Positions 16,796 to 22,818 of a stretch of 64,000 nucleotides of DNA are shown piece by piece. The position numbers and the translations under genes are program-made. Origin of the DNA: Microthyrium microscopicum (taxonomy: Eukaryota); contig MU004230.1 of NCBI GenBank assembly GCA_010405405.1, forward strand, positions 2,576,627-2,640,626. Direction: 5' to 3'. The notes beneath the pieces are model-generated. The model was not told the DNA's origin. It made no database searches and saw only the letters and a list, made by a program, of their open reading frames with translations. Numbering within the stretch: position 1 is the first letter of the stretch; each line of letters starts with the position of its first letter.

Positions 16796-18752
16796 CTATC
16801 TGCTTAGCGCAATATCATCAATTCTCAGAATCATTTTCACCGTCTCCGCAGCCAACTCCAACGCACTAGTGCTGACCAGTAGCGGTTGCAATACGTTTTC
16901 ATCCGCAATGTTGTTCTTTACACCTCCAGTCTTGATGCTAACACCTGCATTCTTCTCTCCAATGGCATGGCGATGTCGTAGGTCCGTCACTACTTTGATG
17001 GAGTTGAGACCAGCATTTTCAGCAAGTGTTGTTGGAATGACTTCCATGGCATCGGCGAATGCTTTCCAGCAGATGGCTTCGGTACCGGCTAGAGTACGTG
17101 CCTTGGTCGCGAGCTGGTGGGCGATTTCGATCTCTGGTGCGCCGCCACCGGTCAGAAGGGCCCTGTGGTTAGGTTAGTAAGGAGGATATTGAGAGGATAT
17201 GAGATGTTTACTTTTTCTTGACGAGGCAGCGGATGACGCATTGAGCGTCGTGAAGACTTCGCTCTGCTTCGTCAAGGACTTGCTCGTTGGCTCCGCGGAC
17301 TACGATGGAAACGGTTTGAACTGGGCCTTTCACACCAGTGACCTTGACAACTCTCGCGCCAGAGGACTGTGTCTCTTCGATAAGATCAGCTGTTCCTAGC
17401 TTGTCTTCGGTAAAAGAATCTATGTCTGCAATAGGCTTGCAGCCAGTACTCTTGCAGATGAACTCGATCTCATCGCGCTCAATATCCTTGACAGCCAAGA
17501 TATTCAGCTTTGCAAGGAAGTGGAGACTGAGCTCATTGACGGCATCGCGAAGAATAGACTTTTGTATGAAGAGAACGTTGCACTTTGCCTTCTTGATCTT
17601 CTTCACCATGTTGAGAAGATATGTCCGCTCCTCTTTGAGAATCTTGTCCATCTGACGGTAGTCATTGACAACGATCTGATTTTCCATATCAGGTTTGGGA
17701 GGAGACAACTGGAATTGGATTAGACCGATGCGGGCCTTTTCTATTCTCGTGGGTCCGCCGCCACTTTTGAGCACTTGTTGTCGCAAGACTAGTCCTTCTA
17801 TCATCTCGCTCTCGTCCAATGTTCCACCGGGCTTTTTTAATATGCGAATGTTTTTGAGATCCGCGTTATCAGCTGTTTTTTGGTCGATGACTTTGAGAAC
17901 TGAGTCCACCGCCATGGGTGCGAGTTTGGGTTCGGAGGATACAATCTTGGAAGAGAGAGAAGTAGAGGCGGCTTTGAGAAGAGCTGGGCGATCGGAAAGG
18001 TTGATGGGTATAGACATGTCTTCAAGGATTGTAACCGCTTCGGCGGCAGCTCGCTGAAAAGCCTCGGAGATGACTGTGGGATGAACGCCTACAGATGATT
18101 AGTCTCTTTGCTTCGGAATTCCATAGCGTGTCCTGCACCTTTGTCCAAAAGTCTCTCTGCAGCTCCCAACAAGCTTCCAGCTATAACGACCACGGATGTA
18201 GTACCATCGCCAGCTTCGATATCCTGAGCATTCGCGAGGTCGACAAGCATCTTTGCCGCGGGATGCATAACGGACATATTTCGCAACATCGTATTACCGT
18301 CGTTTGTCTACTGGAGTATTAGCTCTTGAATTCCCAGGGTCTTTAACTTCAACATACAATCGTGGTTTCGCCTTTTCCATTTTGGATCTTTAAGCATATA
18401 TTAGTCTCGTAGTCCCCGCGTGCTTCGTGCCGATGCGCTCACCATTTTGTCCATACCCTTTGGCCCTAGAGACTATTATATTGTAAGCTCTGCGTTCGAA
18501 GAGAAATCTGGGAGTGTTTACGGTTCGTATGGCATCGGCAACAGCTTTAGAGAGATCTGTCAGTGGAACTCGCAGAAGCACAGTCGCATCAACCAACCTC
18601 GAGCAGCCATGATGTTGGCAGTACGAACAGCCTGTGGCTTCTCCTTGTCCTATACTCAATATCAGTATCGAGTAAGTTTGTATGAAAGTTTTGTCACTGA
18701 CGCGAAATGCGGCATTTGTGGATCCACCACCGGCAATCTGTGCAACGGCCAT
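16796..18752 (-). CDS. CCT4: Chaperonin CCT/TRiC subunit delta, about 8 exons
   Basis: Spliced reading gives [54 protein letters not shown] and ILRIDDI. Confidence 0.95.
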
Positions 18753-19425
18753 CGTGTATCAAGGGCTTTGATGAATTTCACACTATAAGGAGGGAAGAAA
18801 AGATGGGAACTGGAACGCGACACTTGGAAATGTTTCTCAAATAATTTTGGTGTTGATTTTCGAAGCCTTAGAGTTTGGAGGGGTGACGAAGCTCGGGCCC
18901 TGCTTGTTGCCCCTGCCAAACTGATGAACATCAACAAAATAACTGGCGTGCCCGCCGACTGCGATGGCTCCCACACAACACGGTCTGGTATCGAGTGCTT
19001 TATTTACCAATTAGGGCGTTCAGACCGAGAAGTTTTATCGAATGCTATGGAAAATATAACGCCTCTTAATTAATAGCGCCCGTAGGAGCCAGCGCAGTTG
19101 ATGGGAGTTGAGCGCGCCTTCCTTCTATTTTGCCGCGCGGTTGCCTGCTCGGTGCTTTGGTGTCTGTGCGCGAACACCAATTTTCTCTGCAGCTCCAACA
19201 TTTTTTCAACCTCTTCTCCTCCATCTCAACCTCTTCTTCTTCTCAACATCAAGCTTCCCCCCATTCTACCATCTTTTACCCTTCGTTCTTCGCAACTTGC
19301 GTCTTGTCTAGCTCGCTGGAAGATGTGGGCTCCATGATGGCAGAGCTCGTTGCCAGTGTCGGCATTACTCGCGAGCTCTGCCTCACTGTCCTGTAAGTCT
19401 CTCCATCTATCTTATTCTCCCCGTA

Positions 19426-19513
19426 CCTTCAAGATTAAAAACCATAAACCGCAAATCAAACTAGAGTCGCTGAATTTCTCATGAAGTAATTTCAACGTCA
19501 GAATGATGGAAGG
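19426..19513 (+). ncRNA. snR78: Box C/D snoRNA, snR78 homologue with a second snR72-type guide
   Basis: Terminal stem CCTTC/GAAGG; degenerate box C AAGATTA at 19431. Guide TCAAACTAGAGTC (19456-68) before D' CTGA (19470) is antisense to LSU GACUCUAGUUUGA (yeast Um2421). Guide ACGTCAGA (19495-502) before D ATGA (19503) is antisense to LSU UCUGACGU (yeast Am876). Confidence 0.82.
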
Positions 19514-19910
19514 AAGCTGCTACCAGTCTTTACTCTCGCATTTTCGAAGCAAAATGCTAACAGCTTGCAGAAATCGTCGTCTCTCCGCCAGCTCCCATGA
19601 AGGGCAATGTCTCCCGTCTACTAGGTTCTACGACTGGCTGCTTTACCTCCTCTTAGATGCGCAAACCTTCGATTCCCCATCGAAAGCTCTGGGAGTTAAA
19701 GCGCCTTCTAGCTAATAGCGTTGGTGAGAGCCATTGTACTCGTAGGGAGCCCGCCATATATGTTGCCAATCCATTGCCTGCCACCATCGTTCTCAGCATA
19801 TGGAGTTTCACCACATCTGCTGAATAAATGGCTCAAGTGGACTCGGAGCCTAGCGTCATGCGCCTTTAGTTACTGGTACGTTCCCAAACCTCGCTGTCAA
19901 ACCCATTCTC

Positions 19911-20010
19911 CTTGACTTTATGATGATTATCTTTTAATTGGAATTACCGGCTGAGGACTTCTACTCGAGTCCCTGAAGTAGAACATAGAGGCTGTTTCTG
20001 ATCTGTCAAG
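19911..20010 (+). ncRNA. snR77: Box C/D snoRNA, snR77 homologue (SSU Um578 guide)
   Basis: Stem CTTGAC/GTCAAG; box C ATGATGA at 19920. Guide TGGAATTACCG (19939-49) before D' CTGA (19951) is antisense to SSU CGGUAAUUCCA. Box D CTGA at 19998. Confidence 0.92.
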
Positions 20011-20126
20011 CACAAAACCTTTTTACCCATCATATTTTGTTAGTTCTCCTTGCTAACGCGATTGGTGTCTCGCAGATTTTCCGTGGTATGTTCGCATAGA
20101 TCCAGCTGTTAAGCCTTCTTCCACAC

Positions 20127-20220
20127 CATCGCATGATGCAATTGCACTGGGCACCGATATTATATGAGCGATATGCTTTCTCGCGACAGGCCTAGAAAAC
20201 CTCGTCCACTGATTTCGATG
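20127..20220 (+). ncRNA. snR76: Box C/D snoRNA, snR76 homologue (LSU Cm2197 guide)
   Basis: Stem CATCG/CGATG; box C ATGATGC at 20133. Guide GCACTGGGCA (20144-53) before D' CCGA is antisense to LSU UGCCCAGUGC. Box D CTGA at 20209. Confidence 0.88.
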
Positions 20221-20340
20221 TCACGACTCAAACCTGTCCAATACTGTATTACGGACTCAAGCTAATGCTTCAATTTCCGTTAGTGCGAGAACACTCTCAG
20301 AGACAATCTTGTACGTATTTACCTTGCCTCATCTCTCATT

Positions 20341-20436
20341 GTAATATGATGAACATCTAGATGACGAGTCAGACTCGAAGTTTTTTCGCTGTTGATAACC
20401 TTTTATTTAATACCATTCATGCCAAACTGATATTAC
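20341..20436 (+). ncRNA. snR75: Box C/D snoRNA, snR75 homologue (LSU Gm2288 guide)
   Basis: Stem GTAAT/ATTAC; box C ATGATGA at 20346. Guide TAGATGACGAG (20358-68) before D' CAGA is antisense to LSU CUCGUCAUCUA. A second antisense element CCATTCATGC (20413-22) precedes D CTGA at 20427. Confidence 0.92.
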
Positions 20437-20562
20437 CCTGTCATGAACAATGACTTTTCATTCCTGTTAAGGCCAAGACTAACCATTCGAATAGGTAGCC
20501 AATCCGTTCCTGGCCTGTGTCAGACACTTCACGTTTTGGTAGGTCGACCGGTCTCAAAGTCC

Positions 20563-20646
20563 TCAATCATATGATGATCTAAACTTTCTTGACAAGCATA
20601 TGTCCAAGCTATTTATAGCTGTGAAGATTCGATTGATTCTGATTGA
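20563..20646 (+). ncRNA. snR74: Box C/D snoRNA, snR74 homologue (SSU Am28 guide)
   Basis: Stem TCAA/TTGA; box C ATGATGA at 20571. Guide GACAAGCATATG (20591-602) is antisense to SSU CAUAUGCUUGUC; with D' CCAA the +5 rule gives A28. C' GTGAAGA at 20621; D CTGA at 20639. Confidence 0.9.
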
Positions 20647-20775
20647 TATCGACATATCACAGTCTAGCCTCACCTGATATTATGGACTCGGCTGACTTGA
20701 GTTTATAGCTTTCAAGTAAGCTCGTTGAATCTTCCTCGGTACGTACAACACTTTGCAAAGTCTTCCCTCTTACCA

Positions 20776-20864
20776 TTTCATGATGAATCAATTTTATATC
20801 ACGACGGTCTCCATAGCTACGGCTTTGATGATATCGCCCTTGACACGGCATTTTCCCTGATATC
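20776..20864 (+). ncRNA. snR73: Box C/D snoRNA, snR73 homologue (LSU Cm2959 guide)
   Basis: Box C ATGATGA at 20780. Guide TCACGACGGTCT (20799-810) is antisense to LSU AGACCGUCGUGA. C' TTGATGA at 20825; D CTGA at 20857. Confidence 0.88.
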
Positions 20865-21091
20865 TATTCACTCTTGAACCATTGCACTGCCTTGAAATAC
20901 GAAAGCTAACTGCTTTCCCACAGGAATTAAATGACGGTAAGTCTGTAAGATAAGCCGCTCCATCCTCGCTATGGGCTTCAATGTAAGTTTGGTGTGATTC
21001 AGAGATGTCATGGCACATCATCTGATTGTAGTATCTAAGTATATAGTCATATCTATACTCTTCTATCGTACACCACCTTCATTCACTTTGT

Positions 21092-22818
21092 CTACCACGC
21101 CGTGATATCATCAACCTCACTAACCATCCCTTTGCCCGCCACACTAGGCCCACTCTCCGTGGCCTCCGCCTCGGCATCTGACTCCCTCTCCATAATATCA
21201 GGCAACACCTCCTTCATAAACGACACCAAGTGCGCATTCACCTGTTCAAACTCTAGCAAAAACGCATCATGGCCTTCACTGCTGTCTATCGTCTTCAAAA
21301 CAGCGTTCGGTATCGTCGCCGCCAACTCCTCCTGCTCCGCAAATGTGAATAGCCCGTCGCTCTGTATCCCCAAGACCAGTGTTGGCTGTGAAATCGTCGC
21401 TAGCGCTGCGTGGAGCGGATCTTCGCCATCCTCCACGCCTTCAAAGTCGCGGTTCCGACTCACGTCGTGCGTATCTAGTTTGCGCGTTATGGCGATGTAG
21501 CAGTTCGCATCGAAGCGACTTATGAACTTGTCTCCTTGGTATCGTAGGTACGACTGCGCAGAGAAGTAGGTTGGTGTACGCTTTTTGGGGCCTGCGCTGG
21601 GTGGTGGGGTAAGTGGTTCGGGTGTTCCGCTGAATTCGGGGTCTAGGACTGCTGTGCTCGTTGCGGTGGAGATCTTAGAGGTGGAGGTGGTGACAGCGGA
21701 TGTGGGTGCAATGGAAGGTGGAGGCAGGCTATTGATGGAAGCGGTACTGTTTACTCGCGAAGGCCGCGGTGAGCCGGCGTGTTTGTGTCCGTCGTTGTGG
21801 ATGGCAAAGTGGTGGTTTCCGTTGTATTGTGCTGTGTTGATGTTTTGGCGGCGTGATGGGTCAGGGATGTTGCGGCCGAAGCGCTTTTCGAAGGAATCTC
21901 GGCTGCGATAGGTTAAGAGAGCGGACATGCGGGCTGCGCCGAGACCAGTGGATGGTGGCTAGTAGTAAGGGTCAGTTGGGTCGCAGAAGGCCGGTGATGG
22001 TCAATAGGAAAACATACGTCGTCTTGGGCATAGTAGCCGTCGTCGTATTTGGGGTCGCTGTAGATGCTTTGGCGCTGCGCTTCACCCCAGCTGATACCCC
22101 AAGCGCTATATCGTGCAGATGTTGCGATGGGGATGATACTTCGAACGTAGTCTTGTCCAAGGAAAGCGAACTCTAGGACTGTACCACCGCCCATTGAACC
22201 GCCGATGACTGTGGCGGTCTGCCGCACTCCGAGGTCGTCTAGGACGATTTTGAAGATACTATAGTCATTAGGATAGTCATCATATGCTACGGATATCCAT
22301 ATACTTACTTCACATCGTCTCTAATCGTAGTCAGAGGAAACTCTGGCCCATAAATGCCTTGACTACGATCTCCATTCTTGCTCGTCACCGGGCTCGCACT
22401 TCCATACGGACTGCCCAGGCAATTGAAGCAGACTACAAAGAATCTTGACTTGTCGAAAGCCTTGCCAGAGCCTCCCAGTAATGGGCCCCACCAGTCAGCG
22501 ACGTCAGCACTTCCAGTCAGTGCGTGACATATGACCATGCAGTTGTCGCCATTGGGTGACAGCTTTCCAAAGGTCTTGTAAGCTACGGGCACGTTCTCAA
22601 GAGTGACGCCAGATTCCAGGGCAAATGAAGGCACAATTGCAATTGTTTGGCTCGGAACCAGATTGGCATATTGATTTTCTGGTTGGGTATAAACTCGTTC
22701 TGCATGTGAAAGTTAGTATAAATTTTTACGGATATAAATTGTGACCGGGGATGATGGGCGACAAACCGAATGGTTTATGTGAGCCATTGGCCCTTGTAGA
22801 TTCTGGTGTGGCAGCCAT
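21092..22818 (-). CDS. MET2: Homoserine O-acetyltransferase, 4 exons
   Basis: ICHALTGSADVADWW, GSPYGS, nucleophile GGSMGG, YLRYQGDKF, FDANCY, SDGLF and EGHDAFLLE. ATG at 22818. Confidence 0.93.

Follow-up and report, generated by a model that had tools for sequence, protein, structure and literature searches.

What gene, if any, lies in the apparent 'intergenic gap' found within a stretch of 64,000 nucleotides (nt) of Microthyrium microscopicum DNA (assembly GCA_010405405.1, contig MU004230.1, positions 2,576,627 to 2,640,626 of the forward strand; this whole stretch is called the window here and is numbered from its first letter)? A sequence-only reading, made from the letters and their open reading frames (ORFs), had placed there a host gene for box C/D small nucleolar RNAs (snoRNAs), with one snoRNA in each of six consecutive GT-AG introns. 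In our view positions 19393-20923 are, with little doubt, the Pezizomycotina (Euascomycete) form of 'cluster I', a box C/D snoRNA cluster that is conserved among ascomycetes. We are just as confident that the host gene is spliced, that it lacks convincing coding capacity and that each of its six introns holds a single methylation-guide snoRNA. From 5' to 3', Rfam matches and guide elements give the order fused snR78/72, snR77, snR76, snR75, snR74 and snR73, on the + strand and over a snoRNA span of 1.44 kb (19426-20862). No single motif suffices here; the case is made by boxes, guide position, spacing of the published targets, Rfam scores and placement within introns taken together. What the sequence-only reading had observed is confirmed by the analysis as a whole, and its interpretation is supported, with the corrections given below.

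The placement of the introns comes from contigs of one sequencing run, X1, whose material was guessed to be RNA and in which 0.53 of the sampled words are present. Aligned to 19000-21200, these contigs yield seven pieces, all seven at least 99% alike, with joints at 19392/19571, 20310/20495, 20538/20709 and 20738/20924; in addition, they join 19875 to 20284 via ATTTTCCGTG, that is, with introns 2 and 3 both removed and the 10-nt exon 20076-20085 retained. All X1 joints, including an extra one at 20538/20597, are of the GT..AG type, and the contig material therefore comes from spliced RNA. The six introns are all joined out, and each of the five junctions that had been predicted was seen, together with a sixth (20738/20924). 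The 5' splice sites read, from intron 1 to intron 6, GTAAGT, GTACGT, GTATGT, GTACGT, GTAGGT and GTACGT, and every intron has a branch motif (CTAAC, CTAAT or CTGAC) and a YAG 3' splice site (Y, pyrimidine). Exon lengths are at least 413, then 305, 10, 27, 44 and 30 nt, followed by the last exon, so that the micro-exons foreseen for the host are exons 3-6 only, whereas exons 1 and 2 are long. The transcript starts at or before 18980, where the first contig begins, and the start of 19200 given originally falls inside exon 1. Contig cover is absent from parts of introns 1, 2, 4 and 6, which has no bearing on the mature snoRNAs. A separate 257-nt contig is collinear with the genome over 20075-20312 and contains unspliced intron 3, representing either intron retention or precursor.

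The whole window was searched with Rfam at gathering thresholds (GA); permissive thresholds were used as well. Exactly three matches reach the gathering level in the 64 kb, all on the + strand and located in introns 4, 3 and 2: snR75 (RF01185; 20344-20432, 74.3 bits against a GA of 40), Afu_513 (RF01514; 20129-20214, 66.9 bits against 48) and the snR77-like Afu_300 (RF01509; 19916-20003, 46.1 bits against 40). At permissive thresholds snR76 scores 40 bits at intron 3 and snoR77Y 39.7 bits at intron 2; RF01514 (Afu_513), built from Pezizomycotina, and RF01209 (snR76), built from Saccharomycetales, are described as a single family (PMC5824354). With the Afu matches taken into account, the window is thereby assigned to the Pezizomycotina. 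Both Afu-300 and Afu-513 are cluster members that were cloned in Aspergillus fumigatus as complementary DNAs (88 and 129 nt, respectively); of the two, Afu-300 alone is given a northern size, about 90 nt (PMC2377427).

Boxes C and D are present in all six introns, as had been read from the letters, but the canonical pair AUGAUGA and CUGA occurs in four of them only, intron 3 having AUGAUGC/CUGA and intron 1 AAGAUUA/AUGA; the distance from C to D spans 72-85 nt across the six snoRNAs. The earlier count of five clear terminal stems was generous, since the best terminal helices of introns 1-6 measure 5, 6, 5, 5, 4 and 2 base pairs (bp), that is, at least 5 bp in four introns. The helix of snoRNA 2 is CUUGAC/GUCAAG, snoRNA 6 is without a clear terminal stem, and the minimum-energy fold shows stems in introns 1, 2, 4 and 5. 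Single-sequence folding z-scores between -0.79 and +0.69 are uninformative, as expected for C/D snoRNAs. The bare box pattern (TGATGA, 55-85 nt, CTGA) is matched 12 times in the window against 8.8 expected, which is not above chance; four of the 12 matches lie on the + strand inside 19921-20860. Two further candidates were rejected, namely a seventh, snR72-type snoRNA at 20924-21031 (no Rfam match, a collinear contig, no canonical box C and too little room) and a snoRNA hidden in exon 2 (no Rfam match on either strand). Note also that an snR75-type pattern gave 0 matches in a collection of viral contigs, which was searched for stray fungal contigs.

The guide elements provide the link to ribosomal RNA (rRNA). 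Directly 5' of the D' boxes of introns 1-6 are found elements of 13, 11, 10, 11, 12 and 12 nt complementary to eukaryotic large- or small-subunit (LSU or SSU) rRNA, within the 10-13 nt originally reported, and the target nucleotides opposite the fifth guide position before D' are U, U, C, G, A and C, respectively, as at the published sites of Neurospora crassa. The rRNA loci used were metagenome contigs and eukaryotic contaminant contigs in prokaryote assemblies. For LSU rRNA, the D' guides of snR76, snR75 and snR78 (10, 11 and 13 nt) were reverse-complemented and combined, with nothing else, into one search pattern whose gaps followed N. crassa Cm2159, Gm2250 and Um2383. It was matched by 87 metagenome stretches; in 76 of them the gaps measure precisely 82 and 122 nt, which places the targets 91 and 133 nt apart, as in N. 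crassa; both LSU loci tested are LSU_rRNA_eukarya. Two elements that were no part of this pattern recur at the same loci. The complement of the 12-nt snR73 guide is present in 32 of the 51 loci long enough to show it, between +725 and +855 relative to the snR76 site (758 in N. crassa), and the complement of a second element carried by snoRNA 4 (20413-20422) is present in 79 of the 87 loci, about 20 nt from the snR75 target. This second element is of the kind described as extra base-pairing (PMC3116282).

For SSU rRNA, 47 contigs were retrieved with a published primer-type 18S pattern in which the 11-nt target of snR77 is included, and both 18S loci tested are full SSU_rRNA_eukarya matches of more than 1700 bits. 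Of these contigs, 31 extend 560 nt or more in the upstream direction, and 21 of the 31 contain the 12-nt complement of the snR74 guide, at 526-696 nt and mostly at 534-544 nt 5' of the snR77 site. At one locus (L102) this complement occupies positions 25-36 of the SSU match, which makes A28 the partner of the fifth nucleotide; the corresponding N. crassa sites are 18S-Am28 and Um575 (PMC2780460). Guide identities and order, snR78-77-76-75-74-73 as first proposed, are hence borne out by Rfam and by rRNA complementarity at the published spacing. As a side observation, loci L088-L134 (e.g., L102 and L110) are eukaryotic 18S rRNA in contigs filed as bacterial or metagenome-assembled genomes and represent contamination. 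Separately, the snR77-type snoRNA has a D guide (19986-19997) with 10-11 nt complementary to the conserved LSU segment GAACAGCCTCT; 17 of the 87 LSU loci have this segment 312-357 nt 5' of the snR76 site, and four more have the 10-mer at -744 to -856. This D guide could have a second, LSU target, chance being a possible explanation given the background of 10-mer complementarity (see below); for the N. crassa homologue of snR77, CD24, the predicted target is U5 small nuclear RNA instead (PMC2780460).

How would the snoRNAs be released from this transcript? From the end of the D box to the branch motif there are 45-51 nt in six of six introns, and 63-74 nt to the 3' splice site, likewise in six of six. 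Constant spacing between snoRNA and branch site is a requirement of splicing-coupled assembly of the small nucleolar ribonucleoprotein (snoRNP). The main argument for release by splicing, debranching and exonucleolytic trimming, which we infer, is therefore the constant distance between D box and branch motif. In such a mechanism the host gene would be transcribed by RNA polymerase II, Snu13, Nop1/fibrillarin, Nop56 and Nop58 would assemble on the kink-turn of each intronic C/D snoRNA during splicing, and the excised lariat would be debranched and trimmed by exonucleases down to the snoRNP, the spliced exon RNA being a by-product. The snoRNPs would then 2'-O-methylate A28 and U578 of 18S rRNA and A876, C2197, G2288, U2421 and C2959 of 25S rRNA, in yeast numbering, as given for three of these sites in PMC5824354. 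On the 5' side, box C starts 32-47 nt past the splice site, and in N. crassa most intronic snoRNAs lie 41-60 nt from it (PMC2780460).

In S. cerevisiae the cluster is processed by Rnt1. The snoRNAs could likewise be cut here from an unspliced precursor by a yeast-like RNase III/Rnt1 endonuclease, splicing being incidental. Such processing would have a precedent in the unspliced transcript that gives rise to the S. cerevisiae cluster (PMC3596301), and one contig with unspliced intron 3 and another with part of intron 5 kept would agree with it. However, there is strictly one snoRNA per intron, and its D box precedes the branch motif by 45-51 nt, a regularity to be expected if assembly is coupled to splicing but of no use for cutting by an endonuclease; hairpins between the snoRNAs were not found, except for one in exon 1, and the Euascomycete copies are treated as intronic (PMC3596301). 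We consider endonucleolytic release very unlikely and retain release by splicing as the preferred reading.

The coding capacity of the host bears on what kind of gene this is. The gap had been called ORF-free, which does not hold for the spliced RNA: its longest ORFs code for 78 amino acids (aa; 19101-19334) and for 67 aa, the latter starting at the ATG at 19336, spanning the junction of exons 1 and 2 and ending with the stop at 19713-15. It is conceivable that either of them encodes a micro-protein, the snoRNAs then residing in introns of a long 3' untranslated region. The presence of both ORFs in the spliced RNA is in line with this, as is the size of exons 1 and 2, which are far longer than the other internal exons. 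However, Pfam gave no family at threshold for the host ORFs, including the part in exon 2, the sole match being APOBEC1 at chance level (expectation value, E, 0.19). Further short ORFs overlap both of them, a four-codon ORF begins at an upstream ATG (19324), and five introns would fall 3' of the stop. Host RNAs of this sort are moreover poorly conserved and have short ORFs only, of 159-267 bp (PMC3596301, PMC2780460), and the N. crassa host genes with ORFs of this size are called UHG-like (PMC2780460). A protein-coding host appears extremely unlikely to us, and the spliced RNA, which has no long ORF, points to a probably non-coding, UHG/GAS5-like host. The 'GAS5-like' label used before is apt as far as the short ORFs and the layout of one snoRNA per intron are concerned.

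Several points weigh against the reading of 19393-20923 as cluster I with its six guides. Three of the six snoRNAs stay below the Rfam gathering level: snR73 (RF01207) in intron 6 with 33.8 bits against a GA of 37 (E 0.0036), SNORD27 (RF00086) in intron 5 with 21.2 bits against 52, and snR78 (RF01176) in intron 1 with 19.6 bits against 48 (E 0.66 with the intron searched alone). Of the matches expected to the families snR73-snR78, one half of the set thus reaches gathering level and the other half scores below threshold; by guide, boxes and place in the cluster, the snR73-, SNORD27- and snR78-type snoRNAs are taken as functional equivalents, not as members of these Rfam models. In intron 1, box C is non-canonical (AAGAUUA), and the snR72-type D guide makes 8 contiguous bp with TCTGACGT in LSU rRNA, against 10 in N. 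crassa (PMC2780460). The rRNA in which the targets were matched is that of other eukaryotes. Complementarity of 10-mers to rRNA is common in the window, with about 125 blocks per strand in 64 kb (about 2 per kb), and because of this high background it counts only together with a position beside the boxes; over 19000-21200 there are 12 antisense and 3 sense 10-mer blocks. The splicing evidence comes from one run of one study, with unstranded contigs and a record that carries no RNA statement, and both transcript ends are undefined. Finally, mature snoRNAs from the six introns are a prediction from sequence and spliced contigs.

The snoRNA in intron 1 departs most from the usual boxes. It had been named snR78, which its D' guide supports, but it is better described as a fused snR78/72 type with non-canonical boxes. 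In the alignment to the snR78 model the D' guide and its CUGA are conserved, and AUUAAAA and AUGA stand opposite the model's UGAUGA and CUGA; shifting the register two bases upstream gives the box C AAGAUUA and leaves both GA dinucleotides intact. As read from the letters, position 6 of this box C (U) can pair with position 1 of box D (A), whereas canonical boxes pair G with C. The target of the second, snR72-type guide, TCTGACGT, which formed no part of the LSU search pattern either, occurs at 25 of the 67 LSU loci concerned, between -1237 and -1427 relative to the snR76 site (-1303 in N. crassa). In all Euascomycetes the first snoRNA of cluster I is a recombined snR78/72, and the D box of the cluster is listed as CTGA or ATGA (PMC3596301); in N. 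crassa, CD5 directs Um2383 with its D' guide and Am856 with its D guide (PMC2780460). The intron-1 snoRNA is best read as a fused snR78/72 double guide and is probably functional, although its second guide is weak and its C box is unusual.

The same features could also mean that the intron-1 snoRNA is a decaying copy that forms no functional snoRNP, so that only five of the six introns would give working guides. Its low score against the snR78 model, the mismatch of its C and D boxes to that model and the two mismatches that follow the 8 contiguous bp of the D guide would fit decay, all the more as fungal C and D boxes are near-perfect to consensus (PMC5824354). Decay would, on the other hand, leave unexplained that both GA dinucleotides of the kink-turn core, one being the first in box C and the other lying in box D, are kept and that U-A replaces G-C with both sides changed, that a 5-bp terminal stem surrounds the boxes, that the D' guide, still intact, matches LSU rRNA over all of its 13 nt, and that the distance from D box to branch motif, 50 nt, is like that of the other five introns. 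The A at position 1 of box D also has parallels, ATGA being a listed D box of the cluster (PMC3596301) and 4.2% of fungal C/D snoRNAs having another letter at this position, in most cases A (PMC5824354). We judge decay unlikely and keep to the double guide.

In intron 5, an alternative 3' splice site at 20596/20597 (AG at 20595-96) sits within the snR74-type guide. It is used in a contig of 170 nt, where exon 5 is followed directly by 20597 and the 3' half of the snR74-type snoRNA stays in the spliced RNA; a CTAAA motif and a pyrimidine run just past box C are a possible branch site for the corresponding 58-nt intron (20539-20596). Two more specific proposals can be made from introns 1 and 5. 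According to the first, the 5'-most snoRNA would be built on a re-wired kink-turn (AAGAUUA/AUGA, U-A for G-C) with an 8-bp snR72-type guide, a fused snR78/72 that is losing or changing its A876 function. According to the second, which is separate, the cryptic 3' splice site at 20596/20597 would make production of snR74 and one splice form of the host mutually exclusive and hence open to regulation. Taken together, these proposals seem unlikely to us.

The features of the locus are collected in Table 1.

Table 1. Features of the host gene, its predicted snoRNAs and the adjoining genes (window positions; exons and introns according to the X1 contigs).
Feature	Positions	Strand	Details
Exon 1	18980..19392	+	contig of 728 nt, letters 21-413 on 19000-19392; joins 19571
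Intron 1	19393..19570	+	178 nt; GTAAGT...CTAAC...CAG; joint 19392/19571
Predicted snoRNA 1, fused snR78/72 type	19426..19513	+	C AAGAUUA 19431-37; D' guide 19456-19468; CUGA 19470-73; C' AUGAAGU 19481-87; D guide 19495-19502; D AUGA 19503-06; stem CCUUC/GAAGG (5 bp)
Exon 2	19571..19875	+	305 nt; contiguous with exon 1 in the 728-nt contig
Intron 2	19876..20075	+	200 nt; 19875 joined via ATTTTCCGT(G) to 20284
Predicted snoRNA 2, snR77 type (Afu_300)	19911..20010	+	C 19920-26; D' guide 19939-19949; CUGA 19951-54; D 19998-20001
Exon 3	20076..20085	+	10-nt micro-exon ATTTTCCGTG; letters between 19875 and 20284 in contigs
Intron 3	20086..20283	+	198 nt; joint
Predicted snoRNA 3, snR76 type (Afu_513)	20127..20220	+	C AUGAUGC 20133-39; D' guide 20144-20153, then CCGA; D 20209-12
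Exon 4	20284..20310	+	27 nt; joints at both ends
Intron 4	20311..20494	+	184 nt; joint 20310/20495, GT..AG
Predicted snoRNA 4, snR75	20341..20436	+	C 20346-52; D' guide 20358-20368; CAGA 20370-73; D 20427-30
Exon 5	20495..20538	+	44 nt; contig and joints
Intron 5	20539..20708	+	170 nt; joint 20538/20709; alternative 3' splice site 20596/20597
Predicted snoRNA 5, snR74/SNORD27 type	20563..20646	+	C 20571-77; D' guide 20591-20602; D 20639-42
Exon 6	20709..20738	+	30 nt; two contigs
Intron 6	20739..20923	+	185 nt; joint 20738/20924, GT..AG
Predicted snoRNA 6, snR73 type	20776..20862	+	C 20780-86; D' guide 20799-20810; C' 20826-31; D 20857-60
Last exon	20924..21200	+	2208-nt contig, collinear beyond 21200
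TCP-1/CCT chaperonin (Pfam PF00118)	16796-17047, 17208-18017, 18089-18289	minus	
alpha/beta-hydrolase gene (Abhydrolase_1)	21092-22634	minus	downstream, convergent

The upstream neighbour, a multi-exon gene for a TCP-1/CCT chaperonin subunit, is divergent from the host gene, and about 0.5 kb of unassigned sequence (about 18450-18980) separates it from the host transcript. A TTAGGG motif of the Tbf1 site type, at 19012-19017, lies 5' of the snoRNA cluster and within the cover of the first RNA contig; TBF1 motifs have been reported in ribosomal protein gene promoters of A. fumigatus and N. crassa (PMC4138321). Exon 1 also contains a perfect 11-bp inverted repeat (19339-19349, GGCAGAGCTCG; 19372-19382, CGAGCTCTGCC) with a spacer of 22 nt, which ends 10 nt 5' of the intron 1 splice site. 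At the other end, the 2208-nt contig, which reaches from exon 6 across the last exon, continues for more than 1.9 kb past 21200 into the alpha/beta-hydrolase gene, which suggests that the 3' end of the host RNA overlaps the 3' end of the convergent hydrolase messenger RNA; because the contigs are unstranded, the two convergent transcripts are not separable.

The locus is real but already known in kind, since order, size, layout, fusion and alternative splicing are all in print (PMC3596301, PMC2780460, PMC5824354). The sequence-only reading had itself expected an intronic architecture that is not new among filamentous fungi, which the same three papers bear out, and had been right that protein-centred annotation misses such loci, the A. 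fumigatus homologues being listed as intergenic (PMC2377427). Any novelty is limited to the box variant of the first snoRNA, its 8-bp snR72-type guide and the cryptic 3' splice site in the snR74 guide. The value of the locus lies mainly in annotation, namely six predicted guides for seven conserved rRNA methylations in an apparent 'intergenic gap'. It is, in addition, a clear case, backed by RNA, of an internal exon of 10 nt and of snoRNAs placed at a constant distance from the branch site. No new question is opened, because architecture, evolution and alternative splicing have already been published.

Compared with known systems, the locus does not differ in kind from Euascomycete cluster I, which is intronic in all Euascomycetes (PMC3596301) and whose order and length of about 1.5 kb are conserved across Ascomycota (PMC5824354). 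It shares with it the six guide functions and their order, the single snoRNA per intron, the short-ORF host, a probable fused snR78/72 at the 5' end, the span of about 1.5 kb and the alternative splicing of the host; the N. crassa homologues are CD5, CD24, CD12, CD7, CD21 and CD31, and their hosts are alternatively spliced (PMC2780460). Local details are the AAGAUUA/AUGA boxes of the first snoRNA, an snR72-type guide of 8 instead of 10 bp, the 10-nt exon 3 and the cryptic 3' splice site, all of which may already be visible in published figures or supplements. With the S. cerevisiae snR78-snR72 polycistron the locus has the guides and their order in common, as had been claimed, the yeast-derived snR75, snR76, snR73 and snR78 models matching at 74.3, 40, 33.8 and 19.6 bits, respectively. 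In yeast, however, seven separate snoRNAs derive from an unspliced precursor (PMC3596301), whereas here there are six, all of them intronic, the snR72 function probably being fused into the snR78 homologue. In mammalian UHG and GAS5, too, the C/D snoRNAs lie singly in the introns, and the spliced RNA codes poorly and has short ORFs only, but these genes have no sequence relation to the present host and carry another set of snoRNAs; the N. crassa hosts, too, have been termed UHG/gas5-like (PMC2780460).

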